This document shows positions 1,229 to 44,095 of a stretch of 64,000 nucleotides of DNA, one piece after another. The stretch covers positions 343-64,342 of the forward strand of contig JAFLCT010000001.1 of assembly GCA_017302335.1 (NCBI GenBank), written 5' to 3'. Under the pieces are notes generated by a model that searched no databases, had not been told where the DNA came from, and worked only from the letters and a program-made list of their open reading frames with translations. Each line of letters starts with the position of its first letter. Position 1 is the stretch's first letter. Made by a program: the position numbers and the translations under genes. This DNA is from Caulobacterales bacterium. GTDB lineage: Bacteria > Pseudomonadota > Alphaproteobacteria > Caulobacterales > Caulobacteraceae.

Positions 1229-1306
1229 GAGCGGCGTCCCTTCATGGCGGCTCCTCAGCCTAGAGGATGGGGTCGCAATCGTACTTGACCCGCGCGAACC
1301 GGTTCC

Positions 1307-1320
1307 TTGTCGTCGATCAA
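1307..1320. promoter_or_regulatory. FNR/Dnr/NnrR-type box TTGTCGTCGATCAA (TTG-N8-CAA)
   Basis: Near-palindrome 79-92 nt upstream of the nnrS ATG. It matches TTGAT-N4-ATCAA at 8 of 10 half-site positions. Confidence 0.4.
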
Positions 1321-1343
1321 GACTGGTCGTTTCCCGCCGCCGA

Positions 1344-7451: not shown

Positions 7452-9239
7452 TCAGTCCTTCACCGATGCGGTCTCGACCGCTTGCAGGGCCGAAGCCATT
7501 TCCGCGACGAACAGCGTCGCCATTTCATCGCGCATCACAGGATCGCACCAGTAGGGACTCATCACCACCAGGCGGATGACCGACAACTCCTCGCTGTCGT
7601 CGACGCCGTCGTAACCAGCCAGATGGGCGGTCTTCAATGCGGCGCAGTCGCGGCCCAGGGTGGTGCGCGACACGGCGAAGGCCGGAGATTCCTGGAAATA
7701 GGCGAAGACCGCCCCGGTTCGGGCGTTCGAAACGCTGAGCCGCTCGCCGTCTTCGGCCAGGGTGAAACAGGCGATGTTGGCGTCGGCGGGCAGGAATCGC
7801 GCCTGGGGCACGGCCCGCATCACCGCTTCCTCCAGCGCGCGGCGCGCCTCGATCGTGCCGGCCAGGACCGCGCCCAGGCCATCGGGTCCCAGCCCCAGGG
7901 TCTCAGCCGTCAGCCAGGTCGCCGCCGCGCCCGCCGCCGAACGCGACCCCTCCAGCGTCGAGGCCCACTTTCCCGCGCCCAATTCGGGTCGATGCAGATA
8001 GGGCGCATCGAAGGCCGAGACGGCGTAGCTCTGGGCGTCTGACGTCAGGAACGCGCCGCAGGCATAGGGGATGTAGCCCAGCTTGTGCGGGTCGATAGTG
8101 ATGGAATCGGCGCGCGGCAGCGCCCGCAGGGCGGTGCTTACATCAGGTCTCAACGCCGTCTCGGAGGCGCCGTCCAGCAGGGCGCGGAAAAACCCGCCAT
8201 AGGCGGCGTCCGCGTGCCGCCAGATGCGCCAGCCGTGCTGCCGCTCCCATTCGTCCAGGCGATCGAACAGGCCGTCGATCGGATCGACCGCCGACATCTC
8301 GGTCGTGCCCGCGACGCCGACCGTCATCAGCACCGGACGGCCCTGGTCGCGCGCCTGAAACACCAGACGCTCGAAATCCTCCAGATCCATTCGGCCGCGC
8401 GCATCCAGCCGCACGCTCCAAAGGGCCTCGGCGCCCAGGCCGAACAGATTGACCCCCTTGTTCCAGGAATAGTGGCGGTTGCCCGGCGCGATCACCACCG
8501 GTCCCAGATAGTCGATCCCCGAAGCCCGACTGATGCGGCGGCCGACATCCAGCGGATTGCTCGCCATGGCGCTGGCCTGTTTCAGCGCGGTCTCGGTGAC
8601 GCCGTGCGCTCGCCAGAGGTCGCGGAACCGGTCCCAGCCCATGTGCGCGGCCGCGAACGGATCGAGCCGTTCGCCGCGCGTCTCGCTGAGGTGCAGCGCC
8701 ATCGCCAGCCAGTGGTCCAGTCGATAGCGTGCGCGCCACATGGCCTCGAAATTGGCCACCGTACCGCCCGAGGTGAAATGCCCCTGGGCCTGGCCGGGGT
8801 CATAGCCCAGCATCGTCGCCAGATGGGCGACGGCCTCGGTCTCGATCACGCTGCCGACCCGGCTGGCCTCGCGCGAGGTGTTGTTGGGATTGTGCAGCAT
8901 GGCCGCGAACCAGCCCAGGATGGCCGGCAGCGACAGGTCCGACTTCATGTGGGCGATGTAGCGCGGCGTGAAGGTCGGGGTCTCTTCGGTCAAGGCCTCG
9001 CGCAGGACCGCCAGACGTTCAGAGAGACGCTCATGCCCGTCCCCCGTCGCAACCGAACCGACGGCGTCGCCCGGCGACTGGAACCGACATCTTCGCCAGT
9101 CGAACCAGTGATCCAACATCGCCAGCATCTCGTCGCGCAGCCACGGCGCGTGCTCGGAGCGCGCACCGGGAAAATGCTGCTGGGCGAAGGCCGTCGCGAT
9201 CTCAGGGGCGGCCGTCGGGTTCATCGTCGAAGACATCAT
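7452..9239 (-). CDS. PLP-dependent group II decarboxylase family protein (substrate unknown)
   Basis: HFTSGGTVANFEA and the PLP-lysine motif SITIDPHKLGYIPYACG. The start is uncertain: ATG-ATG at 9239 or TTG at 9287. The stop lies 5 nt from the moaD start. Confidence 0.75.
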   Translation of the reverse strand: MMSSTMNPTAAPEIATAFAQQHFPGARSEHAPWLRDEMLAMLDHWFDWRRCRFQSPGDAVGSVATGDGHERLSERLAVLREALTEETPTFTPRYIAHMKSDLSLPAILGWFAAMLHNPNNTSREASRVGSVIETEAVAHLATMLGYDPGQAQGHFTSGGTVANFEAMWRARYRLDHWLAMALHLSETRGERLDPFAAAHMGWDRFRDLWRAHGVTETALKQASAMASNPLDVGRRISRASGIDYLGPVVIAPGNRHYSWNKGVNLFGLGAEALWSVRLDARGRMDLEDFERLVFQARDQGRPVLMTVGVAGTTEMSAVDPIDGLFDRLDEWERQHGWRIWRHADAAYGGFFRALLDGASETALRPDVSTALRALPRADSITIDPHKLGYIPYACGAFLTSDAQSYAVSAFDAPYLHRPELGAGKWASTLEGSRSAAGAAATWLTAETLGLGPDGLGAVLAGTIEARRALEEAVMRAVPQARFLPADANIACFTLAEDGERLSVSNARTGAVFAYFQESPAFAVSRTTLGRDCAALKTAHLAGYDGVDDSEELSVIRLVVMSPYWCDPVMRDEMATLFVAEMASALQAVETASVKD

Positions 9240-9373
9240 GGCCCGCCCATAGCGGGTCGGGACGGGATCACCCTTGTCATGTGTCAAACCCGGCCTTCAC
9301 CGCCGTCAATGCGACCACGCCTGAGGTCGGCGAGGCGTCAAGACCGGTTTCCGCCTTCGGCGCGAGGCTGCGC

Positions 9374-10549
9374 CTAGTCCCGCAGACCGCCGATGACGCC
9401 CTTTTCCAAGATCACCAGCAGGCCGTCGCTTAAGCGGCCCAGGCCCGCGCGTTCCAGCTTGGGATTGCGGCTGCCGTCGGCCTGGAAGTGGAAGGCGCGC
9501 CGCGCATCCTCGGGCATGGAGCGTTCGGCGTCGTACATACTGGAAAAATTCGAGGCCAGTTCCGGTCCCGGAACGATGGCGAAGTCGTCGCCGCCCAGCG
9601 GCAGAGCGATCAGCATGGCGCTGGAGGCGTCCTCGACCAGGCGATTGTCCGCGACATAGCGCGCCTCACGCTCCTCGGCGAAACGGACCAGGCTCTTACG
9701 CGACCGCACCGCGGCGGCGTAATGCGGCATCAGCGCCTGCAACGCCCCGGCGTGTTGTGACGGCGCGCTGGAGGCGAAGATGTCGGGCGCATCGTCATGG
9801 ACACGGATGCGGCGCGGTTGAATGACGGGTTCGCTCGGCGCGTCCCGTTCCGCTCGCGACAGGGCGCCGCCGAATGTGCGATCCCCGCGCGCCTCATCGT
9901 AGAAGGCGTCGGACCTCTGGGCGGGGGCCGCGCCGCCGTCGGGCGCGCCGCCCTTCAACTGGCGGACTTCCGACTTCAGCTCTTCCACCTGGCGATAGAG
10001 CGCGACCAGGACATCGACCAGGGTCGTGGCCGATCCCCGCGAAAGAGCCTGGGTCTGGTTGATGAAGCCCGCGCGCTGCTGCGCCAGCATTTCGGTATGT
10101 CGACCGTCGGCGAACGCTTCGATCAGGGTCTGCGGGGATCCGACCATGGCCAGCCTTCGTCTCTGCGAGAACATCAGGAAGATCACAACGGCCTGGAGCA
10201 GCAGGATGAGGGCGCCCAGAAGATAGAAAGCCCAGTCAGCGCCTAGCCAAGCCACGATCGGAGACTGGACCTCGACCGTTTCGGATGGGTTAATCTCTTG
10301 ATTGCTTTGCCTAACAATCAAAACCTCAGGTGGAATTCGTCGGTCGACCGAACCCGCCCTCGGCGCCTCTGGTACGGCCGCAGCGCTCAGTTCCGAAGAC
10401 GGGGCCTTGTCCGGCGTGGACGCGACGGCGGGCGGACGCGGCGCGGTGCGGGTCGCCGCCGCGGTCTCCGCTTCCATGAACGAGGCCGCCTGGGCGTGGG
10501 TGGCGACGATGCTCAGCACCACCCAGGCGGCAAGGCCCGCGCCCTTCAT
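9374..10549 (-). CDS. Bitopic membrane protein, function unknown (last gene of the candidate system)
   Basis: Signal peptide (MKGAGLAAWVVLSIVATHAQA/AS), one TM helix (WAFYLLGALILLLQAVVIFLMF), then a coiled-coil-like segment and a roughly 200-aa C-terminal domain. Its ATG overlaps the stop of the 1219-aa gene (ATGA at 10546-10549). Confidence 0.7.
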   Translation of the reverse strand: MKGAGLAAWVVLSIVATHAQAASFMEAETAAATRTAPRPPAVASTPDKAPSSELSAAAVPEAPRAGSVDRRIPPEVLIVRQSNQEINPSETVEVQSPIVAWLGADWAFYLLGALILLLQAVVIFLMFSQRRRLAMVGSPQTLIEAFADGRHTEMLAQQRAGFINQTQALSRGSATTLVDVLVALYRQVEELKSEVRQLKGGAPDGGAAPAQRSDAFYDEARGDRTFGGALSRAERDAPSEPVIQPRRIRVHDDAPDIFASSAPSQHAGALQALMPHYAAAVRSRKSLVRFAEEREARYVADNRLVEDASSAMLIALPLGGDDFAIVPGPELASNFSSMYDAERSMPEDARRAFHFQADGSRNPKLERAGLGRLSDGLLVILEKGVIGGLRD

Positions 10550-13500
10550 TGGGTGGCGCCTTGCGTTCGACGCTCTCGCCGACTGAGACCCGAACTGGGC
10601 GCGCCGACGGACAGGCGGTTGTTGTAGCCCGGCGTCGTCAGGTCGCCGAGCAGATGCCGCAGGGCGCTGACGAACAGGGGTTCCAACGGGACCTCGCCAC
10701 GGGCCTGCGCCTTCTGCACCGAGGCCAAAAGCTTGTTGCGGATATTGGCCGCCGCGCTCTGATCGCCCCGGCCCTGGATATCCAGAGCAAAGGTGCTGTG
10801 TTCGGCCAGGGCCTTCAGGAAGGTGTCGAACTCCGCCAGATCCGGGCGGGACACCGAACCCTGATGCGGGAAATCGATGATGTCCGTCTCGGTCCCCATG
10901 ACGACCGAGCCGATCTGCACCGCCAGGCCCGAGGGTTCGAAATCCTGAGCCGCGCGTTCATTGTCCTCCAGCACGATGGCGGCGTCCCGGATCACCATGC
11001 CGTTCGCCACCTCCAGCTTCGGGATCGGCGACATGAAGACGGACGGACGCCGGGATTGGCCGTCCGCCGCCAGGCTGAACAGCGTCAGAAGGCGGCTGAC
11101 CGGCGTGTCCGCGCGCGCATCGGTGTGATCGCCGTGCATCCGTTTGAACAGGCCCGCGCCGCGACCGCACAGGGCGAAGCCGCACGAGGTCAGCAATTCC
11201 GGCCGCAGATCGCCCTGGGCGATCAGGCCGCGCGCGACCAGGCCCAGATACCAGGCGACCCCGCCCAGGAAGGTGAAGGCCGACCGGGTCAGCGCCTGGC
11301 ATTCCTCGGTGCCCGAATTGTGCAGCCAATGATCGTCCAGCGCCCTTTCCAGCACCGGGCCGCTGAACAGCAGTTCGCCGACATGGGGCAGGCGATCTCG
11401 GCCGATGCCCTCGGACTCGTCGCCCGCCAGGATCTTGGCCCAGGCCCCCAGGTTGAGGCGGTCGCGCAGCAGGGCCGGGTTCTTGATGACGTGGGCGGTG
11501 AAGAAGTCCTGGCCCGCGAGACGCAGCGAACCGCGCCACAGCGGCCGATTGTCGGCCCAGATCGCCACGTCCGTCGTGCCGCCGCCAATGTCCAGGACGA
11601 TGTTCAGATCGCTGGCGACGAAGCTGTGATCGCCCAGACCTCCGCTAAGCACATAGTTGGCCGCCGCCCGGCCTTCGGAGTACAGGCCGCGGATCGGCTG
11701 GGTTTTGAGTTCGGCCATGCGAGCCTCGGCGGCGGGTCGAATAACCCGCAACTCGCGCCTCAACAGCTCCAGGAACTCGCCGCCGTCGGTCCTTTGCGCA
11801 TCGGGCCGCGAGAAGCGCCACTCCAGCAGATCGGGGTCCTTGTTGCGGGCCAGGGCCTCCACCCCGATCATCATCATCATCTGGCGAAGGAAACGACCCG
11901 CCAGGATGCGAGACCGCGGCGACGGGTCCGCCTTCAGACCAAAGTCCGCAGTCGATCCGGTCTCGGAACCATGGTGCCATTTCAGATTGAAGCTGGCGCG
12001 GGTCAGGACGCCCCGGAACTTCTTCTCGTCGTCGTTGTCTTCCTTCAGTTCGAGATCGGGTTGGAAATAGATCAGCGACGAGAACAGGGTGCGGTGGTCA
12101 TCCTCGCTGACGCCCGCGCGCTGGACCACGACGGTCGGCGTCGGCGTGCGTTTTTCCACCAGCGGAAAGAAGATCTCGGCGAACGGCCATCGCAAGCCCC
12201 GCTCCGCCGCCGCATTCCGTGCCGGTTCGCTGGACGTGATTGCTTCCAGCGTGCGCTTTCCGAACACCACTGGCAGCCCGTCCTCGAAACAGGCGACGGT
12301 GTTGGTCGTGCCGAAGTCGACGGCCGCAATGCCCACTTCGTTCGCCGTCTCGATGACCGTGGGCCGCAACAGGGTCATGCCCGCCGGTTCCGCCGACGCG
12401 CCCTGACTTTCCGCATAGGCGAAGAAGATGGCTTCAAAGGCGAAGGGCGAGGATTGAAGCTCCTCGACCACCGCATCGTTGTCGGGACGCACCCGGTTGT
12501 TCCAGGCGGAGGCGAAGCCCTTGCCCGCATAGGGTTCGGCCTCGCTGACGATGTCGTCGTCGGCGCATAGGGGGCGGAAGGCCGCCTCTTTCTGGAGCGG
12601 CGCCAGCGGTTTCAGCATTTCCGCGAACGCCCGCCCCGAGACGGCGAAACGCGCGCGAATGTTGTTCTCCATCTTGGTGGAGTAGTTGAGGCGCGCGAAA
12701 TACCAGTTCCATTTGGAGCTGGCGATGTCGGGCCACACCGCGGCCCCGCCATAGTTCCATTCCGCCTCGTCGACGCGCTCGCCCTGGCCCGGCTCGGGTT
12801 GGTCGGCGTAGACGCGCCGCATGGTGAACTCGGCGGGCTTGACCACCCATCCGTCCGCATGGCCCGGCGCCTGGGAGCGGTGGCCTTCCAGCTTCAGCTT
12901 CAACGAGACCGACTCGCCGGACCCGCCCTCGGATCGGACCTCTATCGCCTCGGCCAGTTCGGTCGGTTTCATCAAGAGCAGGGCGAGCGGGGTGAGCGGC
13001 AACAGGGCGTCGCGCAAACCGGCGGGGTGCCCCGGAACGACGGCCTTCAAGGCCAGCCGAAGGAATTTGCGGGTGAACAGGGCCGACGGACGCGCGACCA
13101 GATAGTTGGCCTCGGCCGCCGCCGTCTGGACCTTCAGCAGCGCGGCCTCGCTGTCCAGCACCTCGGCTAAGGTGGTGGCGCCCCAGACCACGACATCGCG
13201 CGCGGGCTTGCCGCGCGCCTCGGCGATGGCGGGATCGACCAGGATGACGCCCTTGAACGGCGCCGTCTCCGCGTCGAAATCGGCGCGCAGGGCCACACGG
13301 CATTCGGACAGTTCGGCCGGGGCGCCCAGGTCGTCCTGCTCACCCAGTTCGACGCTGGTGCGAACCAGTTCATAAAGGGTCGGCGCCCCGTCGCGCGGCC
13401 CCGCACGCACTTTCAGCCTGTAAGGCGTGTCCGCCTCGCCGCAGGCGTCGGCGAAATCGGTGACCCGATCCCGCAGACTGACATAGACGGGATCGTTGTA

Positions 13501-14205
13501 ATCCGTGGTCAGGGTCTCCAGACCGGCCGCCAGATTGTCGAGATAGGTCTGCAAGGCGCGCCTCTGCACTGCCGACAAGGCGCGATCGCCTTTCAGCTTC
13601 AGCGGGTCGATCCAGTGCGAACCCGCCATCCAGGGCACGACGGGGATCGGCGTCCGATCGCAAGCCCGCCCCGGCGACACCAGGCTGGCGGGACTGAGCG
13701 CGCCGATCAGCCGGGGCCGGTCATAGTTGCGACGATCCTGGCTGTTGCGACCCTTCACTGTCTCGATGTGGATCAGCCAGGGGGTCCGCCAGTCGGCCTG
13801 GGCGGCCGCCGCCTCCTGGGGCAGCGTCTGGGTGGGCAGAAGCGCCAGCAGAATCCGATCCAGACGCGGCCCGTCCGCCTTCAGCCGAACCGGCCGCGCC
13901 GACAGCTTGTAGAAGTCGGCCATCAGGTGTTCGAGCGCGAACAACGCCAACAGGGCGCGCCACTTCTCGACCGTGTCCGTCTCCAGCGGATGGTCGGCGG
14001 TGATCAGGGCGTCGGCGAAGGTTCGCGGCTGCGCCCAGGCGTCCGGCACGGACTTGACGTCCTGAACGCCGCCGCCCGTCTTGACGTCCAGTCGCGCCCC
14101 CATCTCGGCCAGGGTGCCCGGAGACGGCATCCATTCGCCAGCGCGGTCGGGATCGGGAAACGATCCTCGGGCCTTCAACGGAGGGAGGTTGTAGGTCCGG
14201 CTCAT
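10546..14205 (-). CDS. 1219-aa protein with actin/Hsp70-fold ATPase core and a ~620-aa N-terminal region of unknown function
   Basis: Hsp70-type phosphate-1 motif IAAVDFGTTNT (nt 12298-12327) and phosphate-2 motif LDIGGGTTDV (nt 11566-11595). A possible adenosine motif follows (FALCGRGAG). Overlaps both neighbours by ATGA. Confidence 0.75.
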   Translation of the reverse strand: MSRTYNLPPLKARGSFPDPDRAGEWMPSPGTLAEMGARLDVKTGGGVQDVKSVPDAWAQPRTFADALITADHPLETDTVEKWRALLALFALEHLMADFYKLSARPVRLKADGPRLDRILLALLPTQTLPQEAAAAQADWRTPWLIHIETVKGRNSQDRRNYDRPRLIGALSPASLVSPGRACDRTPIPVVPWMAGSHWIDPLKLKGDRALSAVQRRALQTYLDNLAAGLETLTTDYNDPVYVSLRDRVTDFADACGEADTPYRLKVRAGPRDGAPTLYELVRTSVELGEQDDLGAPAELSECRVALRADFDAETAPFKGVILVDPAIAEARGKPARDVVVWGATTLAEVLDSEAALLKVQTAAAEANYLVARPSALFTRKFLRLALKAVVPGHPAGLRDALLPLTPLALLLMKPTELAEAIEVRSEGGSGESVSLKLKLEGHRSQAPGHADGWVVKPAEFTMRRVYADQPEPGQGERVDEAEWNYGGAAVWPDIASSKWNWYFARLNYSTKMENNIRARFAVSGRAFAEMLKPLAPLQKEAAFRPLCADDDIVSEAEPYAGKGFASAWNNRVRPDNDAVVEELQSSPFAFEAIFFAYAESQGASAEPAGMTLLRPTVIETANEVGIAAVDFGTTNTVACFEDGLPVVFGKRTLEAITSSEPARNAAAERGLRWPFAEIFFPLVEKRTPTPTVVVQRAGVSEDDHRTLFSSLIYFQPDLELKEDNDDEKKFRGVLTRASFNLKWHHGSETGSTADFGLKADPSPRSRILAGRFLRQMMMMIGVEALARNKDPDLLEWRFSRPDAQRTDGGEFLELLRRELRVIRPAAEARMAELKTQPIRGLYSEGRAAANYVLSGGLGDHSFVASDLNIVLDIGGGTTDVAIWADNRPLWRGSLRLAGQDFFTAHVIKNPALLRDRLNLGAWAKILAGDESEGIGRDRLPHVGELLFSGPVLERALDDHWLHNSGTEECQALTRSAFTFLGGVAWYLGLVARGLIAQGDLRPELLTSCGFALCGRGAGLFKRMHGDHTDARADTPVSRLLTLFSLAADGQSRRPSVFMSPIPKLEVANGMVIRDAAIVLEDNERAAQDFEPSGLAVQIGSVVMGTETDIIDFPHQGSVSRPDLAEFDTFLKALAEHSTFALDIQGRGDQSAAANIRNKLLASVQKAQARGEVPLEPLFVSALRHLLGDLTTPGYNNRLSVGAPSSGLSRRERRTQGATQ

Positions 14206-15785
14206 TCGGCCCTCTCCTTGGTCGGCACGCGCGCGGCGTGATGCACCATGGCGGCGAGCCGACCAAAGCCCCTGTGCCCGGCGGCGGCATGGGTGTCGCG
14301 CAGGGCGCGGCTGGTCAGCTCGTCATGCAGGGCGGCGGCGCTGCGCGGGGGTTCATTGTGGTCCAGGGGCGACAGCGCGGCGTTGTAGGCCTCGTTCGCA
14401 CGTTGATCCGTCAGGCCGTCGGCGATCTTGATGGGGCGCCTGGGTTGGCGGACATCGGCCTGTTCCTGAACGGCCTCGGTGTTCCAGAGCTGGAATTTCA
14501 GACCTGAATCCTCGGCGTACAGGCGCATCGCGCCGCACCACATCAACAGGCTGTCGAACAGCAGGATCAGGCGTTTCCTCGCGTCATCGGTTTCCGTGAC
14601 CTGGAAGTCGACGTCGCGGGTCAGATCCTGAAGCCAGCCCGCCTTCAGCCGGCCCAGGAGATTGCGGCGACCCAGTTCCGGCTCGACCTGGAACCGCCAC
14701 CACACCGCCGTGCGCAACAACTGGCCCAACCGATCATAGGTGTCCTGATGCCGTGCATGAGCCGCGCCCGGCAGGTCGCCCCAGCCCACGACCCCCGGCT
14801 TGGCGCGGGCGCAGACCTTCACGGCGGTTCCGACCTCTTCGGCGGCTTCAATCGCGGGGGCGTTGAAGAAGTCGATGGCCGCCTGGGCGCCCAGAAGCTC
14901 TGACGGCAGGGGCGGATTGATCTGGTCGTTGTCGCCGGGCGAGTGGTGCGGAAGCTTGAATATCTTGTCGCTGCCCGCGAGGTAGATGTGGTCGAAGACC
15001 GGCTCGCTCTTGAACAACTGGTTGTAGTACTGGAGCGCGGCCTGCGCCTGGGGCATCAGATTGGCGGCCAGCACGACGTTGTCGGTTTCGTCTTCGGGGT
15101 CCGCGAAGCTGAAATAGGGCAGCATCAGCGCCCCGCCCAGCTTCACCTTGTCGCTGTTGCGGGCCTCCTTGCGCAGTGCGTTGATCCGCCGCGCCAGGAT
15201 CGGGAAACCGGCGGCGCCGGTGCCCCCGAAGGCCGAGCCGACCAGGAAGATGCGCACATCGCCGTCGATGGTGGCGTTCTTCATCAGCTCGATCATGCGC
15301 TTCTTGAACTGGCCGTCGCCCAGTTCGAGGCTGGCCAGCATGGCTGCGGCGCCGACGTGGGCGCGGCCGCGGTAGCCCTGGCCCAGCCCCATGTCCTGCT
15401 CCTCCTGGCCCTCCAGGAACAGCAGATCCATCAAGGCTTGCCGGTCGGCGTCCAGACCGCCGCGGTCCAGAATCTGCGCCAGACTGCCCTGCCCGTCGGC
15501 CGAGGGCCGCCAATAGGGATCGTCGCCGAACAACGGCTCGATCTGCACGCGGCCGAGCGTGGTGCGGGTCCAGTCCAACCGGTTATCGGCGCTGAAATCC
15601 CTCCTGAATTTCACCAGATCGTAGAGCAGTTCGCGCGTGCGCGTCAGATTGCCGTTCGCCTTGTCCTGGTCGACCAGGCCGACGACGACCTTGCTGGGTC
15701 CCAGTCCCGCGAAAAAGAGATAGAGCGCGGCCTCGACGACCTTGGCGCCGGTTCCTCCGACGCCGATGAGGACGTTGGTGGTCAT
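14202..15785 (-). CDS. Divergent FtsZ/tubulin-like GTPase (527 aa)
   Basis: ORF 14202..16313 trimmed to the ATG at 15785, which overlaps the stop of the upstream 4-TM gene. The N-terminal IGVGGTGAK (15741-15767) resembles the FtsZ T1 loop. GSAFGGTGAAG (15207-15239) resembles the tubulin/FtsZ GGGTGSG signature. Confidence 0.7.
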   Translation of the reverse strand: MTTNVLIGVGGTGAKVVEAALYLFFAGLGPSKVVVGLVDQDKANGNLTRTRELLYDLVKFRRDFSADNRLDWTRTTLGRVQIEPLFGDDPYWRPSADGQGSLAQILDRGGLDADRQALMDLLFLEGQEEQDMGLGQGYRGRAHVGAAAMLASLELGDGQFKKRMIELMKNATIDGDVRIFLVGSAFGGTGAAGFPILARRINALRKEARNSDKVKLGGALMLPYFSFADPEDETDNVVLAANLMPQAQAALQYYNQLFKSEPVFDHIYLAGSDKIFKLPHHSPGDNDQINPPLPSELLGAQAAIDFFNAPAIEAAEEVGTAVKVCARAKPGVVGWGDLPGAAHARHQDTYDRLGQLLRTAVWWRFQVEPELGRRNLLGRLKAGWLQDLTRDVDFQVTETDDARKRLILLFDSLLMWCGAMRLYAEDSGLKFQLWNTEAVQEQADVRQPRRPIKIADGLTDQRANEAYNAALSPLDHNEPPRSAAALHDELTSRALRDTHAAAGHRGFGRLAAMVHHAARVPTKERAE

Positions 15786-16306
15786 CAGCGCCTCCCCAGG
15801 CGATGCAGCACGGCCGCGCCGGGCACGGCCGCCGCCATGGCCGGGCGGGTCGAAAAGACCGTGCCCAGATAATAGGCCAGGACGACCCCGGCCATCGTCA
15901 GGCCGACCGACAGGGCCAGGGTCGCAGGGTTCTGAAGCGCGGCCTGAAGCGGGCGGCTCCAGAGCATGAACCAGGCCTCGCCGCCCACGGCTGCAAGCAC
16001 CGTGACGAACAGACCGGCCCAGGCGCCGCGATAGGCCTCGGCCTGGCGATCGTTGATCGGATCGGCCCGTACGGTGATCCACACCCAGACCAGGGACATC
16101 AACGCACTGAGCGCGAAGGCGATTGACGCCAGGGGCAGCAGCAGTTGTCGCAGATCCCCGAGCGCCAGTTCGATCTGCAATCGACTGGACGCTGTCTCCA
16201 TGAAGCCCGAGTTCAGCGACTCTTCCCGGCCGCCGATCAGCCACAGACCGATCGCCACGACGCCCCAGAACAGAAGATGCACCAGCACTGTTCGCAAGAA
16301 ACGCAT
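15785..16306 (-). CDS. Four-TM membrane protein, function unknown
   Basis: 173 aa with four hydrophobic helices. Its frame differs from the spurious N-terminal extension of the 703-aa track ORF. Stop/start overlap with the tubulin-like gene. Confidence 0.65.
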   Translation of the reverse strand: MRFLRTVLVHLLFWGVVAIGLWLIGGREESLNSGFMETASSRLQIELALGDLRQLLLPLASIAFALSALMSLVWVWITVRADPINDRQAEAYRGAWAGLFVTVLAAVGGEAWFMLWSRPLQAALQNPATLALSVGLTMAGVVLAYYLGTVFSTRPAMAAAVPGAAVLHRLGRR

Positions 16307-16348
16307 ACGCCATCCCCTCTCAAAATGATCAAACCCCGGCCGCCGCCC

Positions 16349-17809
16349 CTAGCCTTGCGTGCGTACGATGAAGGCGAAGCCCGCCCCCGCGCCTGGCTCA
16401 CCGCGCGCGGACAAGGCCCGGGCGTGGGCGCTTTCCAGGGCCTCGGCGAAGCGGGCCAACCCCAGGGTCGGCGCCAGGCCGTCGTCGCGATCCAGGGCGG
16501 CGCGTTCGGACTCGACCGACCAGTCGAAGGTCCAGTCGGCGCTCCGCATCCAGGCCGCGGCAGAACCCGCGCCTCGGCCCGGCGCCAGCGGAACCTCGCC
16601 CACGATCAGCAGCGGCTCACTCGGCAGCCCGCGGGACTCCGCCCTTGGATCGAAGCGGAAGACCACGTCGCCCGCCTCATCCTGGCTCCAGTCGCCGTTC
16701 AGCCGACCGAGCAGGCGCCAGGCGCCCGGCGCACAGGCCCGCCCCCCGGTCTTGACCCAGACCGAAGCCGTCGCAGCGCCCACATCCAGCGGCCGCGCGA
16801 TCTCGACGTCTCTGCCCTTCTCGCGCCAAATCAGGCGAAGGGCGGGGGCGCTGGCGCCCGAGCCGCCATCACGTTTCAACGTGTATTGCGCGATCGGCCC
16901 GACATCGACGCGCGGCAGGATCGCGGCCTCTTCCATGCCGACGCGGAACAGCGGGCCTTCCAGCTTCGCCGGTCGAGGCGTGACCGCCTGCTTCGGATCG
17001 AGGTTGAACAGGGTGCGGCGTACGCGGCCCTCGTTGAAGGCGGTTTTCAGATAGTTGGCCGCCCTCAGTTCGCGATCCAGCGCGGCGAGGCGATCGGGCG
17101 GCCCGGCGGCGACGAGATAGAGCGGTCGACGCCGCGCCTCCACATTCCTGCGACCGCTGGGAAGGCTGTCCAGGATTCGCCCCTGATAGGGCAGGTTGAA
17201 ACCATAGACGGCGACGCCACGGCCAGAGGCCATGATCCGGCGCAACGGCTCGCCCAGGGCGGCGGCGTCGCTGACGGCCTTCTGCCGATTGTCCATCCAC
17301 AGGTCGCTGATCAGGATGGTCAGCCGGTTCGGCGCCTCGTCCGCCATGCCTTCCAGCGCCGCGTCGATGTGGCTGGCCTTGGCGTCATAGGCCTGCGCCC
17401 TCATGAGGCGATCCAGATCGGCGGCGGGCGCCTCGGTCATCGCCTCGCCCTCGCCGAACAGCTTGTATCCGGTCTGGTCCGCGCCCCACGGCGGGTATCT
17501 CAGCAGGTCGGGTATGAAGCTTTCCCGCGCCCCGCCCGCACGCAGATAGCCCTGCATACTGGCCGACCGATCGAGATAGACGACCGCCCCGCTCCCGCCC
17601 GCCGCGACGACGTCGGCGTGCACGTCGACTGGTATCCAGGGTCTGGCCGCAGCGGGAAAACACCCCCGGGCGCCCTGAACGCCGTCCGCGACCGACGGCG
17701 GGCCGCCATCAGTCTTCGCCGGGGTCCAGCGGTCGCATCCGACGACCCCTTGAGCGGCGCCGAGACAGACGGCTCCCACGACCAGTTTCTTCAATAGGCC
17801 TGCCCCCAT
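16349..17809 (-). CDS. vWA-domain lipoprotein
   Basis: Lipobox LGAAQGVVGC and MIDAS-type DxSxS (VVYLDRSASM, nt 17558-17572), followed by TILISDLW. An alternative TTG start at 17794 (MKKLVVGAV...) is preceded by GGGGCAGG. Confidence 0.7.
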   Translation of the reverse strand: MGAGLLKKLVVGAVCLGAAQGVVGCDRWTPAKTDGGPPSVADGVQGARGCFPAAARPWIPVDVHADVVAAGGSGAVVYLDRSASMQGYLRAGGARESFIPDLLRYPPWGADQTGYKLFGEGEAMTEAPAADLDRLMRAQAYDAKASHIDAALEGMADEAPNRLTILISDLWMDNRQKAVSDAAALGEPLRRIMASGRGVAVYGFNLPYQGRILDSLPSGRRNVEARRRPLYLVAAGPPDRLAALDRELRAANYLKTAFNEGRVRRTLFNLDPKQAVTPRPAKLEGPLFRVGMEEAAILPRVDVGPIAQYTLKRDGGSGASAPALRLIWREKGRDVEIARPLDVGAATASVWVKTGGRACAPGAWRLLGRLNGDWSQDEAGDVVFRFDPRAESRGLPSEPLLIVGEVPLAPGRGAGSAAAWMRSADWTFDWSVESERAALDRDDGLAPTLGLARFAEALESAHARALSARGEPGAGAGFAFIVRTQG

Positions 17810-17839
17810 AGGTTGAACTATGGAACATCGTTCAACCTA
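17809..17839. promoter_or_regulatory. Perfect 10-bp inverted repeat TAGGTTGAAC-N11-GTTCAACCTA
   Basis: Read directly from the sequence. It lies in the AT-richer 64-bp divergent intergenic region and abuts the annotated ATG of the vWA gene. Confidence 0.5.
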
Positions 17840-17873
17840 ATGTAAAGGTGAAGACCGAGTTAATTCAGTCGGC

Positions 17874-18458
17874 TTGGGGGACTGGGGTTTGGCGGCGTTC
17901 GAGACCATCATGTTTGATGACGGCGGGACCGTGGTCGAACTCCAGACCGCTCGCTCGGTGCGGCGCGCGGTGGAGAACGGCGTCCTCAAGATCGACACCC
18001 TGGTCACGCTGATCGCCCTAGACGGATCGACCCGCCGACTACGCGCCGCCGAGATCGAGGCGCTTCGTCCATTGTTCGGCCAGGCCGAAGTCGTGGACGA
18101 AAAGGTCTCGCCCGTCGTCGATCCGCCGATCATCGAGGCCGCCAGTGATGAAATCTCGGCCGAGACCGACCCTGTCGTCGCGCCCCGGGCGACGCAGATC
18201 ACGGCCGTGCAGGCCGCCTTCTCATCGGCGACGACCGGGACGAGCGCCCCCCCGTCCATCCCCCCAGCGTATCGAACCGCGGCCTCGGCGAAACCGGGAG
18301 GCTGTGGGCTGGTCGCCTGGGGTTGGACCCTTCTGATCGGCGGGCTTCTTCTCAGCGGCGCCTACCCGCCCGCGAGTCTGGCCTTCGTCATCGGCCTGGC
18401 GCTTCTGCTGTTCACCGTCGTGCGGGGCATGGCCCGCCGCATAGGCGGAGGCGCGTGA
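17874..18458 (+). CDS. Membrane protein with N-terminal GYF_2-like domain (paralogue 1)
   Basis: The N-terminal ~60 aa align with the next gene (ARSVRRAVENGVLKIDTLVTLI... versus ARSLRRAIENGLLTRETLVTLI...). Two C-terminal TM helices. TTG start, so the start is uncertain. Confidence 0.55.
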   Translation: MGDWGLAAFETIMFDDGGTVVELQTARSVRRAVENGVLKIDTLVTLIALDGSTRRLRAAEIEALRPLFGQAEVVDEKVSPVVDPPIIEAASDEISAETDPVVAPRATQITAVQAAFSSATTGTSAPPSIPPAYRTAASAKPGGCGLVAWGWTLLIGGLLLSGAYPPASLAFVIGLALLLFTVVRGMARRIGGGA

Positions 18459-18463
18459 CGGCG

Positions 18464-19897
18464 ATGAGCGGTCTCGATTTCAGCCTGCTGTTCTCCGAGG
18501 GCGGCGGCGCCCATCAGTTGAGTTCCGCCCGGTCGCTTCGCCGCGCCATCGAGAACGGACTGTTGACCCGCGAAACACTGGTCACCCTGATCCGGGACGA
18601 AGAAAGCCGAACCCTGCGCGCGGGCGCCGCGCCCGAACTCGCCCCCCTGTTCGATGAGATCATCGGCGCCCTGTCGGTCCGAGAGTCTGAGACGGAGACG
18701 CAGACACAGGCCGCGGACGCCGAAATCTCCGAGGCGTCGCACGCTGAAACCGCCGCCGCCGAAAGCCCCTCCGACACCGCGAGTGCGCTTGAACCTGAGG
18801 CGGTCTCGGCGACGCCCCCGCCCACCTCCAAGAGCGTGGAGGGCGACGGCCGTCTCGAACCGGAAACGGTCGATCGCGCCGCATCGAACAGGGACCCCGA
18901 GTTCTTCGACCTGGATCAACCGCCCGCCCCGGTCGTCTGGGGCGGCGTCGCGGCCATCCTGCTGGCGATCCTCGTCCTGCTTGTGAAATGCGCAGGCGTC
19001 GGACCCGCGCCCTCCCCTGTGAAACCGCCACCCCCCGTGGTCGTGACCCTCTATGTCACGCGCCAGACCAATGTCCGCCCCGATGTCCGGGCGCGCGAGA
19101 TCGGGACCGTGGAGCGTGGCGAGGTCCTGCGTGGCGTAATCCAGGGCGGCGGAGACGGCGACCGATGGCTGCGGGTGTCCGAAGGGCCGCATCAGGGCCG
19201 ATGGGTCTGGGCGGGCAATCTGTCGCCTAGTCCGCGCCCCGCATTGATCGAACGTCTCGACGGCGCCCATCAGGTCCTGAGACCTGGCGTGCTGCGGCGG
19301 GAAGGTCAGGACGGGCGGTTCGTCGAGCACGGCGTTCAGATCGGCGACCGGCTGACCCTGCTGGCCTATGTCGCCGACGATCAGGTCGAGGTTCAGATGG
19401 AAGGCGGCGGCGTCGGCTATCTTCCGGCCCAGGTCTTCCGCCCCGACGAACAGGCCGAGGCCCAGCGCCAGGCCGAACGGGAGGCGGCCCGCCAGGCCCG
19501 AGACGCCGCCAGGGTTGCGGCGGAGGAAAACCGCCGCCGCGCCAACGAAGCCGCCAATGCGGCGGCGGATGCGGCGGCGATGGATGTTCCGCGCACGATC
19601 TCCCAGGCCGACGCCAACTGGCGGCTGCGGATCACCCCGCGGTTGCCCAGCCGTTTGAACCTGTCCGACGGCTCCACGCTGCGCGCGAGCGTCGCCTGCA
19701 TCGTCAGAGACGACGGCGCCATGAGCGATTGCCGCCTGGTGTCGGAACAGCCGCGCAACTCGGGCTACGGCGCCGCCGCTCTGGAGGCGGCCCGTTCCAG
19801 CCGCCACTACCCCGAGGATCGAAGCCGCCGTCCCGTCGGAGGCCGCCAAGTCACCCTGAATTACGAAGCCGACGTCGGCGGGCTGATCAGCCCCTGA
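18464..19897 (+). CDS. Membrane protein: GYF_2-like N-domain, TM helix, SH3-like domain, coiled coil, TonB-C-like domain (paralogue 2)
   Basis: Start trimmed to the ATG at 18464 (MSGLDFSLLF). TM helix VVWGGVAAILLAILVLLV. The C-terminus (ASVACIVRDDGAMSDCRLVSEQPRNSGYGAAALEAA) resembles a TonB C-terminal domain. Confidence 0.6.
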   Translation: MSGLDFSLLFSEGGGAHQLSSARSLRRAIENGLLTRETLVTLIRDEESRTLRAGAAPELAPLFDEIIGALSVRESETETQTQAADAEISEASHAETAAAESPSDTASALEPEAVSATPPPTSKSVEGDGRLEPETVDRAASNRDPEFFDLDQPPAPVVWGGVAAILLAILVLLVKCAGVGPAPSPVKPPPPVVVTLYVTRQTNVRPDVRAREIGTVERGEVLRGVIQGGGDGDRWLRVSEGPHQGRWVWAGNLSPSPRPALIERLDGAHQVLRPGVLRREGQDGRFVEHGVQIGDRLTLLAYVADDQVEVQMEGGGVGYLPAQVFRPDEQAEAQRQAEREAARQARDAARVAAEENRRRANEAANAAADAAAMDVPRTISQADANWRLRITPRLPSRLNLSDGSTLRASVACIVRDDGAMSDCRLVSEQPRNSGYGAAALEAARSSRHYPEDRSRRPVGGRQVTLNYEADVGGLISP

Positions 19898-19900
19898 ATG

Positions 19901-19916
19901 CTGTCGGCCCCGACAG
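19901..19916 (+). terminator. Short GC hairpin after the stop codon (CTGTCG-GCCC-CGACAG)
   Basis: Lies 4 nt after the TGA at 19895-19897. There is no clear U-run. Confidence 0.3.
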
Positions 19917-19970
19917 TCACCCACTCAGTATACATTTGTTTTGCAATGGTTATCTGAAAGGAAAAAGGAA

Positions 19971-20633: not shown

Positions 20634-22097
20634 ATGACAACGCATCTGACTAGGGCCGCTGCGGCATGGGTCGTCGCGCTTTTCGGCTTCATCGGTCTTC
20701 AGGGCTGCGCCACGGTTCGGTCGGCGCCCGATCATCGGTTCGACACCCAACCGACGGGGATCGCCTATTTCCTGCCGATGCGGCTGGCGCGGCTGACGAT
20801 CACCCAGACCCCCGTCAGCCTGGCGGACTTGATCACCGATCGGGACGACAAGATCGTGGCCCGCGCTGCGGCGCGGGCGGCCGCTGCGGCCGCGACAGCC
20901 AAGCGCGAACAGGCGCAGACCGCGCTCAACGCCGCCACGGCCGCCAACCGCGCGGACCTGACCAGGGCGCTCGAAACGGCGACGGCGGATGAGAACAAGG
21001 CCAAGACCGCCGCGACGGCCGCCAATGCGGCGGTCGAAGCCGTCACGCGCGACATCTACGCGGCCAGCGTGAACGGACAATCCTGCACCTTTGTCCCGAC
21101 CATCGACCTGCTGCCGGTGCAGGCGGATCGACGCCGCCGCTTCGCGCTTCAGCCCGTTCACAACGAACTGCGTGACGACACGCTGAAGATTGGCCTGACG
21201 CCGACCAGCCTGCTGACGACCGGCGATGTCACCGCCGTAGACCAGACAGGCCAGATCCTCGTCGACCTCGCCGGCGTGGCCGGCGCCGCGGCGGGCGTCG
21301 GCCGGGATGGTGGCGGCGCCGATGACGACGGTTGTCCGGGTCCGGCGGTCTGGGCCACGATCTTCGACCCCGCCGAGGCCGCCGCCATCGACCAGGTCAA
21401 TCTCCAGCTCACCAGCAATGACCTGCCCTTCTTTCTGACAGCCCAGATCGATGGACCGGCGATCTCACGAGATCGGACGACCGACGCGGCCCTGCCCGCG
21501 GCCCAGGTGGCGGAAGGCGTATTCTACCGGTCGGCCGCGCCGCTCCTGCTGATCCTGAACCGCACCTTCAGAACAGGCGCAGGTGCGGAAAATGCAGGTG
21601 GAGACGCCGGCGGCGCCCAGATCGTCTCTGGACCGGTTCAGATCCCGCGGGTCGCCGCGCCGCCGGTTCGGGTTGATCCCGCACCTCAGGTGGAGGGGGT
21701 TCCGGCCCTGGCCGCCGTGCTCATCCTGCCCCAGGCGGGACCGGTGTCGCGCCTGTCGCTCCCGGCTTCACCGTTCGTGCGCACCCATCACGCCTATGAA
21801 TTCGCGGACGGGGCCTTGATCTCGGTCTCCAGCGAGCGCCCCGGCGCCGTTCCTTCCGCCGTCAAGGTGCCTCTGCTCGCGCTCAACGCCTTCGCCGACG
21901 CCTTCGCCAAGGCCGTGGCGGTTCGCGTCGATATCCGCTCCACGCGCATCAATGACGACACGGCGGCCATCGACGCCGTCATCCAGGATCGGCTCAACGT
22001 CGCCCTGATGTCCTGTCTGGACGCCGCAGGCGCCGACACGACGGCGATCCGCGCCTGCGCGAGCGCGTACCGAGGCGCCGGGGCGCCCGCGCCGTGA
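20634..22097 (+). CDS. Lipoprotein with Ala-rich coiled coil, function unknown
   Basis: Lipobox FIGLQGC and an Ala/Thr-rich helical stretch. Its stop overlaps the caspase-like gene start (GTGA). Confidence 0.6.
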   Translation: MTTHLTRAAAAWVVALFGFIGLQGCATVRSAPDHRFDTQPTGIAYFLPMRLARLTITQTPVSLADLITDRDDKIVARAAARAAAAAATAKREQAQTALNAATAANRADLTRALETATADENKAKTAATAANAAVEAVTRDIYAASVNGQSCTFVPTIDLLPVQADRRRRFALQPVHNELRDDTLKIGLTPTSLLTTGDVTAVDQTGQILVDLAGVAGAAAGVGRDGGGADDDGCPGPAVWATIFDPAEAAAIDQVNLQLTSNDLPFFLTAQIDGPAISRDRTTDAALPAAQVAEGVFYRSAAPLLLILNRTFRTGAGAENAGGDAGGAQIVSGPVQIPRVAAPPVRVDPAPQVEGVPALAAVLILPQAGPVSRLSLPASPFVRTHHAYEFADGALISVSSERPGAVPSAVKVPLLALNAFADAFAKAVAVRVDIRSTRINDDTAAIDAVIQDRLNVALMSCLDAAGADTTAIRACASAYRGAGAPAP

Positions 22098-24792: not shown

Positions 24793-24878
24793 GGGTGTGC
24801 GCTGCCTGCCCTCAAAACAGCAGGTGAGAGCGCCGCCCGGCGTGTGATCGCGCAAGGTCGCCGATGTGCGCTCAGAAC

Positions 24879-44031: not shown

Positions 44032-44095
44032 GCGAGCCTGATCGGGTGAGCAGGAAACGCTTCGCGTTTCCGCCGAGGTCGTGAATCAGGCTCTC

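Follow-up and report, generated by a model that had tools for sequence, protein, structure and literature searches.

A compact variant of the FtsZ-like-1 and vWA operon class encoding a predicted tubulin-superfamily GTPase and a giant, predicted actin/Hsp70-fold ATPase

What does a bacterium do with an operon that combines a tubulin-like GTPase, a giant actin/Hsp70-like ATPase and three membrane or periplasmic proteins, and is such a system already known? We asked this of a locus in a 64,000-nucleotide stretch of a Caulobacterales genome (hereafter the window), which a preliminary description had put forward as a candidate undescribed system. All five consecutive minus-strand ORFs of that description are present (Table 1). 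The first two genes are separated by a 42-nt gap containing a ribosome-binding-like stretch (GAGAGGGGA). The three remaining junctions had all been described as ATGA overlaps; this is correct for g3/g4 and g4/g5, whereas g2/g3 reads TGATG, where the two genes share 1 nt and the ATG of g3 lies at 15785-15783, from which the start codon of g3 was re-set to 15785. All three are nonetheless stop/start overlaps and, on the basis of these overlaps, the genes of the operon are translationally coupled. The genes are real and not artefacts of high GC content, since homologues exist for every one of them and two AF2 models are confident. The five-gene operon is genuine.

Table 1. Coordinates of the operon and of adjoining features in the window.
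Feature	Positions	Strand	Length	Description
g1	16349-17809	minus	486 aa	exported lipoprotein; N-terminal vWA-like alpha/beta domain, then beta-sandwich domains
g2	15785-16306	minus	173 aa	small membrane protein; four hydrophobic segments
g3	14202-15785	minus	527 aa	predicted Tubulin_2/FtsZ-like-1 GTPase (PF13809), short form; cytoplasmic
g4	10546-14205	minus	1219 aa	cytoplasmic; conserved N-terminal ~590 aa and predicted C-terminal actin/Hsp70 (ASKHA) ATPase domain
g5	9374-10549	minus	391 aa	bitopic membrane protein; signal peptide, one TM, coiled coil, C-terminal domain
Promoter-like site TTTACA-18-CATAGT	17809-17846	minus		lies just upstream and extends over the g1 start codon
Divergent pair of paralogous membrane proteins	~17910-18458 and 18461-19897 (17910-19897)	plus		recurs beside the block

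Co-conservation of the genes was the refutation test that the preliminary description had set itself. We found g1-g2-g3-g4 to be syntenic in 20 of 20 non-redundant loci covering the block, among which g4 identity falls to 22%. These loci belong to three bacterial phyla, with copies in Alphaproteobacteria, on mobilizable cyanobacterial plasmids (Gloeothece and Picosynechococcus) and in one MAG of the Actinomycetota; across all of these the genes of the block stay together as an inherited unit. It is absent from the phage collections searched. The g1 family is a small one, with 140 clusters (50% identity) in a set of 1.84 billion representatives, the extracytoplasmic parts of the system evolve fast, and two Brevundimonas genomes carry versions that are only 35-43% identical. 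Because the distribution is sparse, some copies are plasmid-borne and a single genus can carry very different versions, we regard the system as an accessory trait. In the window and in a related Brevundimonas locus (L001), the operon lies between the same chromosomal flanks, which are of housekeeping type, and the GC content is not deviant; the housekeeping flanks and the GC content weigh against the reading favoured below.

The assignment of g3 to the tubulin/FtsZ-like proteins is upheld by Pfam. The protein scores 30.4 bits (E 3e-7) against PF13809 (Tubulin_2, the FtsZl1 family; gathering score 27) and the same model is matched by 32/32 homologues, with a best E-value of 3e-10. Both glycine loops noted earlier, IGVGGTGAK and GGTGAAG, are present and invariant across the 32 homologues, including G8, G10, G11, T12 and G13 of the T1 loop and G187, G188, T189 and G190 of the T4 loop. 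The signatures compared were GxGGxG for T1 and the GGGTG[ST]G type for T4. A variable linker follows, and then a conserved C-terminal peptide (residues 501-520). We thus predict from the sequence that g3 acts in the cytoplasm as a GTPase of the tubulin superfamily, its nucleotide loops being intact. Membership of the FtsZ family proper was rejected: g3 has no match to the Pfam FtsZ/Tubulin families nor, by sequence, to FtsZ structures, a profile search against the PDB giving no significant FtsZ match and hhalign against E. coli FtsZ being uninformative outside the T1 loop. T6-H7 was not found in FtsZl1 by Makarova and Koonin (PMC2875224). The typical FtsZl1 architecture (~1000 aa; FtsZ-like domain, coiled coil and alpha-helical C-terminal domain) was likewise rejected for g3, which together with its homologues measures 511-547 aa and, judged from this length, is too short for the ~340-aa coiled coil.

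For g4, an actin/Hsp70 call had been made for the C-terminal half, and it is upheld. The AF2 model (residues 1-1195; pLDDT 84, pTM 0.78) was compared with the PDB using Foldseek and retrieved the nucleotide-binding domain of DnaK/Hsp70, Ssb, MreB, MamK and actin/Arp at E-values from 4e-7 to 4e-5, all with probability 1.0. A library of viral structures returned only Hsp70 and actin relatives (viral Hsp70s, E 2e-7). A profile search against the PDB matched MreB (3e-6) and DnaK (1e-4) with phosphate-1 and phosphate-2 both aligned. The corresponding motifs, DFGTTNT (630-636) and DIGGGTTD (872-879), stand in the correct order and are conserved across 28 homologues, in which D630, G632, K742, E844, D872, G874, G875, T877 and T878 are invariant. 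The C-terminal half of g4 is accordingly modelled as an actin/Hsp70-fold (ASKHA) ATPase in which the phosphate-binding motifs are intact. All Pfam models stay below their gathering scores, and g4 could not be placed in a known family: PF00012 (Hsp70/DnaK) and PF07520 (SrfB) have no match at E<=1 in g4 or any of the 28 homologues, while MreB_Mbl (15.5 bits against a threshold of 27) and FtsA (14.3 against 31.8) align with the phosphate-2 segment only. For the ~590-aa N-terminal half no match was found.

The lipoprotein g1 carries a VVGC lipobox that is kept in most homologues, with a conserved Cys, in line with its earlier description as an exported lipoprotein. Its reported DxSxS motif is DRSAS; D80, S82 and S84, together with D169, are invariant in an alignment of 63 sequences. 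In the AF2 model (pLDDT 84, pTM 0.83), strand 75-80 precedes D80 and strand 163-168 precedes D169, so that sequences and model together have the layout of a vWA MIDAS, i.e., DxSxS after beta-1 and an acidic residue after beta-4. The fold itself is harder to recognise. Foldseek against the PDB gave no match at E<=0.001; the vWA-type matches listed, all at E 0.07-0.13, are Rpn10 vWA (8pfd_B; probability 0.75, TM 0.37 on the target), VWF-A1 (1oak; 0.69), the LFA-1 I domain (3f74; 0.60) and ArnAB (8s05), and Ig-like structures are also among the matches. Pfam VWA models match 0/13 family members at E<=1, and a profile search against PDB sequences found nothing at E<=10. Of the vWA call, then, what stands is the invariant DxSxS...D signature, correctly placed in the structure, while the fold matches are weak (E ~0.1) and have no Pfam or PDB sequence match beside them. 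We describe g1 as a lipoprotein that faces the periplasm and carries an invariant, putative MIDAS-type metal/ligand site in a vWA-like domain, the vWA fold being weakly supported.

The two remaining products have the topologies that had been proposed for them. Four hydrophobic segments are detected in g2 and in nearly all of its positional homologues, including those of Gloeothece (156 aa) and Picosynechococcus (170 aa). In g5, a signal peptide and a low-complexity periplasmic stretch are followed by one TM and RRR, then by a C-terminal part of ~270 aa; the cytoplasmic side has a coiled coil, then a linker and a conserved C-terminal domain of ~130 aa. Among 13 aligned positional homologues the N-terminus varies and the C-terminal domain is conserved. 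In the PDB, a profile search returned coiled-coil noise only. HMMs built from the loci detect both proteins in non-training loci (g2 in L030-L032, E 2e-14 to 1e-30; g5 in L032 at 2e-20 and L031 at 3e-8). We class g5 as a bitopic protein that has a coiled coil and, in the cytoplasm, a conserved C-terminal domain.

Is the system new? A class of operons combining FtsZ-like-1 with vWA proteins was predicted computationally by Makarova and Koonin in 2010, who proposed a role in membrane remodelling (PMC2875224). Our operon shares with it the g3 family, several membrane proteins and, provided that the weakly matched fold of g1 is indeed vWA, the association with a DxSxS vWA-type protein; g1 is adjacent throughout. 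Additional file 5 of the same study lists Magnetospirillum magneticum AMB-1 amb2957-amb2961 as vWA-FtsZl1-vWA-vWA-giant HSP70, so that the AMB-1 locus likewise ends with a giant COG0443/HSP70 protein (1626 aa), a link never discussed in the text of that study. The present operon differs from the class in several respects. To judge by its length of 527 aa, g3 does without the extended coiled coil that typical FtsZl1 proteins of ~1000 aa possess. The vWA-like protein, a lipoprotein, is too divergent for the Pfam VWA models, and OmpA-like proteins, P-loop GTPases and Ser/Thr kinases are absent from the operon. Moreover, g2, the N-terminal module of g4 and g5 are unlike the associated families B1-B9 (PMC2875224), to judge by the descriptions of those families. 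The operon belongs to the FtsZ-like-1 (Tubulin_2) and vWA class of multi-component membrane systems, as a compact variant not described before. The earlier claim of an undescribed system is thus retained in part: searches of PADLOC, NCBIfam and Pfam SrfB are negative, but the class was predicted in 2010, a locus with a giant HSP70 has already been tabulated (PMC2875224), and tubulin and HSP70 components both appear in a survey of GTPase-centric conflict systems (PMC7159879).

That survey (Kaur et al., 2020; PMC7159879) describes GAP1-N2 type, DO-GTPase-centric conflict systems, with a core of one or two TRAFAC-clade DO-GTPases and a GAP1 protein and with themes of tubulin plus vWA or HSP70 plus GrpE, for which NTP-dependent assemblies were proposed. 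The two themes do not overlap and are confined to Firmicutes and Actinobacteria. The likeness lies in tubulin- and HSP70-superfamily NTPases, vWA proteins (some of them extracellular) and membrane components. In our operon, by contrast, both NTPases occur together, the taxa are mainly alphaproteobacterial and cyanobacterial, and DO-GTPase, GAP1 and FNIII-repeat components are missing, GAP1 being judged from operon gene content. Neither the five products (Pfam, NCBIfam) nor the conserved neighbours contain a P-loop GTPase domain, and on this ground we rejected the assignment to a DO-GTPase/GAP1 system.

What the system may be for is suggested mainly by its surroundings. The divergent pair of membrane proteins beside g1 (Table 1) shares an N-terminal domain and has one TM in each member. 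Relatives adjoin the block in L001, L002, L008/9, L013, L021, L030, L031 and L032, with a partial relative in L012; the window copies have no Pfam match at E<=0.01, and the relative in L031 shows Pfam matches to TonB_C and, faintly, to SH3_3. The pair is a probable accessory component. Its position is taken instead by a 415-453-aa TerD-domain protein in L004, L006/7, L010 and L011, TerD-domain genes directly adjoin g1 divergently in 5 loci, and in Sphingomonas a full TerD/TerC/PRTase cluster lies beside the block. Ter clusters are known to include a vWA protein, TerY; g1-g5, however, include no Ter family member, and TerD is missing from the window locus. Other recurrent neighbours are sll0997_C, RHS toxins, a transposase, a serine recombinase and a vWA-PP2C-HATPase set, and the window has, at a distance of 2.7 kb, an operon for a caspase and a trypsin. 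These associations recur but not in every locus. Taken with the sparse horizontal distribution, the Ter, RHS, recombinase and caspase/trypsin neighbourhoods argue for an accessory stress or conflict role and against cell division. We therefore favour, with modest confidence, the view that this variant operon encodes an accessory, envelope-spanning NTPase machine for envelope stress or inter-organismal conflict.

A narrower reading overlaps with this one and differs only by committing to immunity: a dedicated anti-phage or anti-competitor system of the abortive-infection type, in which the vWA lipoprotein would sense envelope attack and the NTPases would assemble and arrest or kill the cell, or contain the invader. 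The context just described (TerD/Ter clusters, RHS toxins, transposases, serine recombinase and the vWA-PP2C-kinase-like triad) suits it, as do the caspase and trypsin operon, whose caspase matches the PADLOC caspase model at 1e-8, the mobilizable plasmid copies and the sparse, fast-evolving extracytoplasmic parts. There is also a conceptual precedent in the proposal that tubulin and HSP70 components are assembly-forming parts of conflict systems (PMC7159879). Yet none of the five proteins matches any family of PADLOC-DB v2 at E<=0.1, no recognisable effector (nuclease, toxin or pore) is found among them, and DO-GTPase, GAP1, FNIII or MoxR partners are missing. An extracytoplasmic sensor would be atypical for known phage defence, and one side of the window locus carries housekeeping genes. 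We consider dedicated immunity rather unlikely. Since no effector is recognised and PADLOC gives no match, the conflict role within the favoured reading is itself contextual.

The variable linker and conserved C-terminal tail of FtsZ (CTL/CTC), the latter docking onto FtsA, offer a second comparison. By analogy, g3 and g4 could form a tubulin-fold/actin-fold pair at the inner membrane, g3 having a similar linker and terminal peptide. From this likeness one may draw a constitutive machine for envelope biogenesis or membrane remodelling (vesicle formation, local shaping of the membrane or the placing of an envelope complex), a membrane-bound cytoskeleton like FtsZ-FtsA. It would agree with the original genomic inference of Makarova and Koonin (PMC2875224), with the 3/5 products that are membrane or periplasmic, and with the stability of the operon between the same flanks in the window and L001. 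However, g3 and g4 lie outside the FtsZ and FtsA families, the 1219-aa g4 being subthreshold for both FtsA and MreB, and the operon encodes no lipid- or peptidoglycan-acting enzyme. The system is also accessory, plasmid-borne in cyanobacteria and equipped with periplasmic partners; its sparseness, visible in the small g1 family, and its divergent versions within one genus better suit such a trait. A constitutive envelope role is in our judgement improbable.

In type IV pili and type II secretion systems, alignment subcomplexes combine an actin-like PilM, bitopic coiled-coil PilN/O and a lipoprotein PilP, with GspL/M as equivalents. An ASKHA-fold cytoplasmic protein, a bitopic coiled-coil protein and a periplasmic lipoprotein resemble this architecture by analogy, and the TonB_C/SH3 partner hints at a link to the outer membrane or peptidoglycan; the operon might then specify an inner-membrane platform, part of an apparatus that crosses the envelope for secretion or for a surface fibre, with NTPases energising export. 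Against this, the operon has no sequence or Pfam relationship to PilM, PilN, PilO or GspL families, the tubulin-like GTPase is without counterpart there, and the neighbourhoods contain no conserved secretin, pilin, hexameric secretion ATPase or cargo gene. The system is, in addition, present in an Actinomycetota MAG. We hold a secretion platform to be very unlikely.

For the favoured envelope-stress or conflict machine, the parts suggest how it might operate. The five products would form one envelope-spanning complex, in which the g1 lipoprotein would bind an extracytoplasmic ligand via its MIDAS site. g2 and g5 would relay the signal across the inner membrane, often aided by the adjacent SH3/TonB_C-type or TerD protein, and the signal would control nucleotide-dependent assembly, at the membrane, of the g3 GTPase with the giant g4 ATPase. 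Through its conserved C-terminal peptide, g3 may dock onto g4 or g5, much as FtsZ docks onto FtsA by its tail. A bolder version, to which we give little credence at present, makes this a new type of prokaryotic outside-in receptor-to-cytoskeleton machine: from the periplasm, an integrin-like vWA/MIDAS receptor would control the joint assembly of g3 and g4 as an obligate pair on the other side of the inner membrane, and the N-terminal module of g4 would be a new coupling fold. If true, the FtsZ-like-1 branch of the tubulin superfamily would thereby gain a function and a mechanism, the first to be defined for it.

The promoter-like site listed in Table 1 is the sole sigma-70-like match within 9000-18500. 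An inverted repeat with 14-nt arms (17809-17822 and 17826-17839; 93% complementary) overlaps it. The intergenic region upstream of g1 is 94% identical to that of the related Brevundimonas locus L001.

The five genes g1 to g5, numbered in transcription order, form a translationally coupled and co-inherited set. It encodes a periplasm-facing MIDAS-type lipoprotein, two proteins of the inner membrane and, in the cytoplasm, one NTPase each of the tubulin and actin/Hsp70 superfamilies. All five consecutive minus-strand open reading frames (ORFs) claimed in the preliminary description were found in the window (table below), and reading the junctions base by base bore out the 42-nt gap between g1 and g2, inside which lies a purine-rich, ribosome-binding-like stretch. 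Three ATGA junctions had also been claimed: this holds for g3/g4 and g4/g5, whereas g2/g3 reads TGATG with a one-base overlap and the start of g3 is therefore moved. Stop and start overlap at all three junctions alike. The sole sigma-70-like match within 9000-18500 is located just upstream of g1 (17846-17817). An inverted repeat with near-perfect 14-nt arms (TAGGTTGAACTATG / CATCGTTCAACCTA) and a 3-nt spacer (17809-17839) overlaps both this promoter-like site and the g1 start codon (feature span 17809-17846), and could act as an operator or as an RNA hairpin occluding the start codon. The repeat is kept in locus L001 of a Brevundimonas metagenome-assembled genome (MAG), whose intergenic region upstream of g1 is 94% identical to ours; L001 is also 95% identical in g3 and g4, and the window is Brevundimonas-like. 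Two minus-strand ORFs upstream of g1 (17837-18259, 140 aa; 18362-19924, 520 aa) were rejected as sixth and seventh operon genes: they are high-GC shadow ORFs of genuine plus-strand genes.

Positions in the window of the five-gene block and of the plus-strand genes beside it
Feature	Position	Strand	Remarks
g1, predicted vWA-like lipoprotein	16349-17809	minus	486 aa
g2, four-hydrophobic-segment protein	15785-16306	minus	173 aa
g3, Tubulin_2 GTPase	14202-15785	minus	527 aa; start corrected to 15785
g4, giant actin/Hsp70-fold ATPase (predicted)	10546-14205	minus	1219 aa
g5, bitopic protein	9374-10549	minus	391 aa
Paralogous membrane-protein gene pair	about 17910-18458 and 18461-19897	plus	tandem, divergent from g1
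Four-gene apparent operon	20634-26126	plus	stop/start overlaps
487-aa protein, unknown family	within 20634-26126	plus	
Caspase-domain protein	22094-23830	plus	Peptidase_C14 E 4e-26; weak PADLOC caspase match
Trypsin-like protease	23827-24792	plus	E 4e-54
420-aa protein, unknown family	within 20634-26126	plus	

Contigs, metagenome loci and plasmids carrying homologues of g3 and g4 were located, and a presence matrix was built with hidden Markov models (HMMs). Training sequences of the g1 model were independent of the loci, and the g2 and g5 models also pick up members in loci outside their own training sets. The scan of genome contigs with a single-protein query gave at least three loci. The order g1-g2-g3-g4 is the same in 20 of the 20 non-redundant loci covering these positions, with g4 identity going down to about 22%, and in every contig that extends past g4 the next gene is of the bitopic g5 type. 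Co-conservation of the block across phyla is robust. The system is present in Brevundimonas, Sphingomonas and Novosphingobium, with a g3 homologue alone in Hyphomonadaceae. It is colinear on Picosynechococcus plasmids, and a mobilizable plasmid of Gloeothece PCC 7822 matches g1 (E 1e-19), g3 (3e-63) and g4 (1e-84, over both halves) and also encodes a 156-aa four-hydrophobic-segment protein and two bitopic coiled-coil proteins. A further g3 match is on a plasmid of Synechococcus sp. NIES-970. An Actinomycetota MAG carries g1, g2 and g3 together with the beginning of a g4-like ORF that has the SIPSPWAS motif. The versions in two Brevundimonas genomes are merely 35-43% identical, which indicates horizontal spread or rapid divergence of the system. 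A phage or prophage origin was rejected, the system being absent from GenBank phages and from IMG/VR. Loci L024-L027 were discarded: they encode ordinary MreB-size proteins matched at the phosphate-2 motif only. On a Picosynechococcus plasmid (L033, 7214-8443) the annotated g1 homologue begins within the DxSxS region, its product starting MVGFVSRSGTLY; the open frame reaches upstream to 6965, so a mis-called RefSeq start or an N-terminal truncation of the gene is the probable explanation.

The tubulin/FtsZ-like domain proposed for g3 was confirmed by a match to Pfam Tubulin_2 (PF13809) at 30.4 bits, above the gathering score of 27, and the same match is found in all 32 aligned homologues. The T1 (GxGGTG) and T4 (GGTGAG) loops are invariant in the alignment and the nucleotide motifs are intact. 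A profile of g3 searched against PDB sequences gave E 0.39 for its best FtsZ match, and hhalign against E. coli FtsZ aligned the T1 loop alone. This Pfam family is equivalent to the FtsZ-like 1 (FtsZl1) family described by Makarova and Koonin (PMC2875224; PMC9871819), of which g3 is a short form: typical members run to about 1000 aa and include an extended coiled coil. Near its end, g3 carries a conserved peptide (G.G...AA...A, residues 501-520, window about 14226-14285) preceded by a poorly conserved linker of about 60 residues, a layout that by analogy recalls the C-terminal linker and FtsA/ZipA-binding peptide of FtsZ.

An actin/Hsp70 domain had been assigned to the C-terminal half of g4, and both structure and motifs agree. 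The AF2 model (residues 1-1195, input alignment of 28 homologues) is confident (pLDDT 84, pTM 0.78), and Foldseek matches it in the PDB to DnaK/Hsp70 nucleotide-binding domains, MreB, MamK, actin and Arp2/3 (E 4e-7 to 4e-5) and in a viral library (BFVD) to Hsp70 and actin relatives and nothing else. In a profile search against PDB sequences, phosphate-1 (DFGTTNT) and phosphate-2 (DIGGGTTD) align to MreB and DnaK; as in g3, the nucleotide motifs are intact. Catalytic-type residues D630, K742, E844 and D872 are invariant, so g4 is likely an active ATPase. All matches belong to the actin/Hsp70/sugar-kinase superfamily (ASKHA) and to the C-terminal half; the N-terminal half matches nothing in the PDB profile search, in Pfam or in Foldseek against PDB and BFVD. 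Its first 590 residues or so are well folded in the model and carry the invariant motifs PDxWAQ and WR..LAL. No Pfam family attains threshold for g4, SrfB and HSP70 being without any match, and membership of the SrfB, HSP70, FtsA or MreB families was rejected for lack of a match at threshold.

The g1 family is small (140 clusters in 1.84 billion representatives searched) and most homologues keep the lipobox cysteine. Residues D80, S82, S84 and D169 are invariant in a 63-sequence alignment. In a confident AF2 model (pLDDT 84, pTM 0.83), D80 directly follows strand 75-80 and D169 directly follows strand 163-168, which are the vWA MIDAS positions. Pfam searches with 13 members and a PDB profile search were both negative for vWA, and Foldseek of the model gave no match at E<=0.001; weak matches include the Rpn10 vWA (prob 0.75), VWF-A1 (0.69), the LFA-1 I domain (0.60) and ArnAB, with Ig-like sandwiches for the C-terminal part. 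Based on the invariant residues at MIDAS positions and these weak vWA matches, g1 is probably vWA-like with a MIDAS-type site. The earlier vWA call is plausible but weak.

Four hydrophobic segments are found in g2 and likewise in nearly all its positional homologues. In g5, a signal peptide leads into a low-complexity periplasmic stretch and one transmembrane (TM) segment with RRR after it. A coiled coil and a linker then connect to a C-terminal domain of some 130 aa, the only part conserved across the family; the g5 profile returned coiled-coil noise and nothing else from the PDB. A rival explanation of the block would be a platform for secretion or fibres, by analogy with PilMNOP.

Comparison with the literature places the locus in a class already predicted. 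Makarova and Koonin (2010) (PMC2875224) predicted membrane-remodelling systems centred on FtsZl1, with vWA proteins bearing intact MIDAS motifs, P-loop GTPases, OmpA-like proteins and kinases; a constitutive membrane-remodelling cytoskeleton is accordingly a second rival. Their Additional file 5 lists, uncommented, a Magnetospirillum locus (vWA-FtsZl1-vWA-vWA-1626-aa COG0443/HSP70), which gives the vWA-like, tubulin-like and actin/Hsp70-fold trio of the window a precedent. The DO-GTPase/GAP1 conflict systems of Firmicutes and Actinobacteria (Kaur et al., 2020; PMC7159879) have tubulin + vWA or HSP70 + GrpE themes; our locus is without their defining DO-GTPase and GAP1, and unites both NTPases where they have either the tubulin or the HSP70 theme. 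PADLOC and NCBIfam searches with all five proteins returned nothing relevant. Because the literature searched contains neither a description of this five-gene architecture nor experimental work on FtsZl1 proteins 15 years after their prediction, we place the locus as an undescribed variant of the computationally predicted FtsZl1 class. The claim of an undescribed system thus holds for the architecture but not for the class, and the locus is not categorically new.

The two proteins of the divergent plus-strand pair have in common a GYF-like N-terminal domain and a TM segment after it, and the larger paralogue adds SH3-like and TonB_C-like periplasmic regions. In about ten loci a relative of the larger paralogue adjoins the block, and one such relative has Pfam matches to TonB_C and, faintly, to SH3_3. 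Five other loci have a 415-453-aa TerD-domain protein in this position, once beside a full TerD/TerC cluster, and the two types are apparently mutually exclusive. Other recurrent neighbours are sll0997_C proteins, DUF805, RHS toxins, a transposase, a serine recombinase and a vWA-PP2C-HATPase set. The sll0997_C domain (PF27178) occurs no more than a few kb from the system in L004 (16341-17552), L010 (1-819), L014 (5461-6849) and L031 (2454-3959). In Sphingomonas colocasiae (L032), a vWA (faint)-PP2C-unknown-HATPase set upstream (610-3261) and a serine recombinase with DUF2924/DUF3489 downstream (16095-19095) suggest a mobile or defence-island setting there. The caspase-domain and trypsin operon of the window lies 2.7 kb beyond the divergent pair; with its overlapping stops and starts and its paired proteases, it resembles the conflict systems with peptidase cascades in Kaur et al. 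(2020). Housekeeping genes (PLP decarboxylase, MoeA, ribonucleotide reductase) make up the opposite flank, and GC content is not deviant.

The patchy distribution of the system, its presence on plasmids and its neighbours lead us to favour an accessory envelope-stress or conflict role rather than cell division. The operon holds no recognizable effector and matches no known defence model in PADLOC. A dedicated abortive-infection-type immune system is a further rival. We propose that the five products would form one envelope-spanning complex, in which ligand binding at the g1 MIDAS site may be relayed by g2, g5 and the accessory SH3/TonB_C or TerD protein, and the relayed signal would control how g3 and g4 assemble at the membrane in a nucleotide-dependent manner.

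FtsZl1/Tubulin_2 is the most divergent branch of the tubulin superfamily, and the locus is a compact, sharply delimited five-gene version with culturable hosts (Brevundimonas, Sphingomonas, Novosphingobium, Picosynechococcus, Gloeothece) in which a tubulin-fold GTPase is firmly coupled, at gene level, to an actin/Hsp70-fold ATPase and to periplasmic and membrane partners. It offers a tractable entry to possible cooperation between bacterial tubulin and actin homologues outside division, to the ligands of the vWA/MIDAS proteins in FtsZl1-type systems, and to a possible part of such machines in defending the envelope. Should it be an immune or stress system, a cytoskeleton-based mechanism would be added to bacterial defence.

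Some minor features were also observed. Between g5 and the PLP-decarboxylase gene, L001 carries an insert of about 3 kb (16424-19540, versus window 9287-9374) with ORFs of 232, 152 and 502 aa that are absent from the window. A 1192-aa minus-strand protein (window 30683-34261) has a C-terminal Peptidase_M1 (residues 865-1061) as its only Pfam match, with none over the first 860 residues or so. At a TonB-dependent receptor gene (44186-47272), GC content dips to 0.618 over 44001-46000, against about 0.68-0.70, with positive GC skew.
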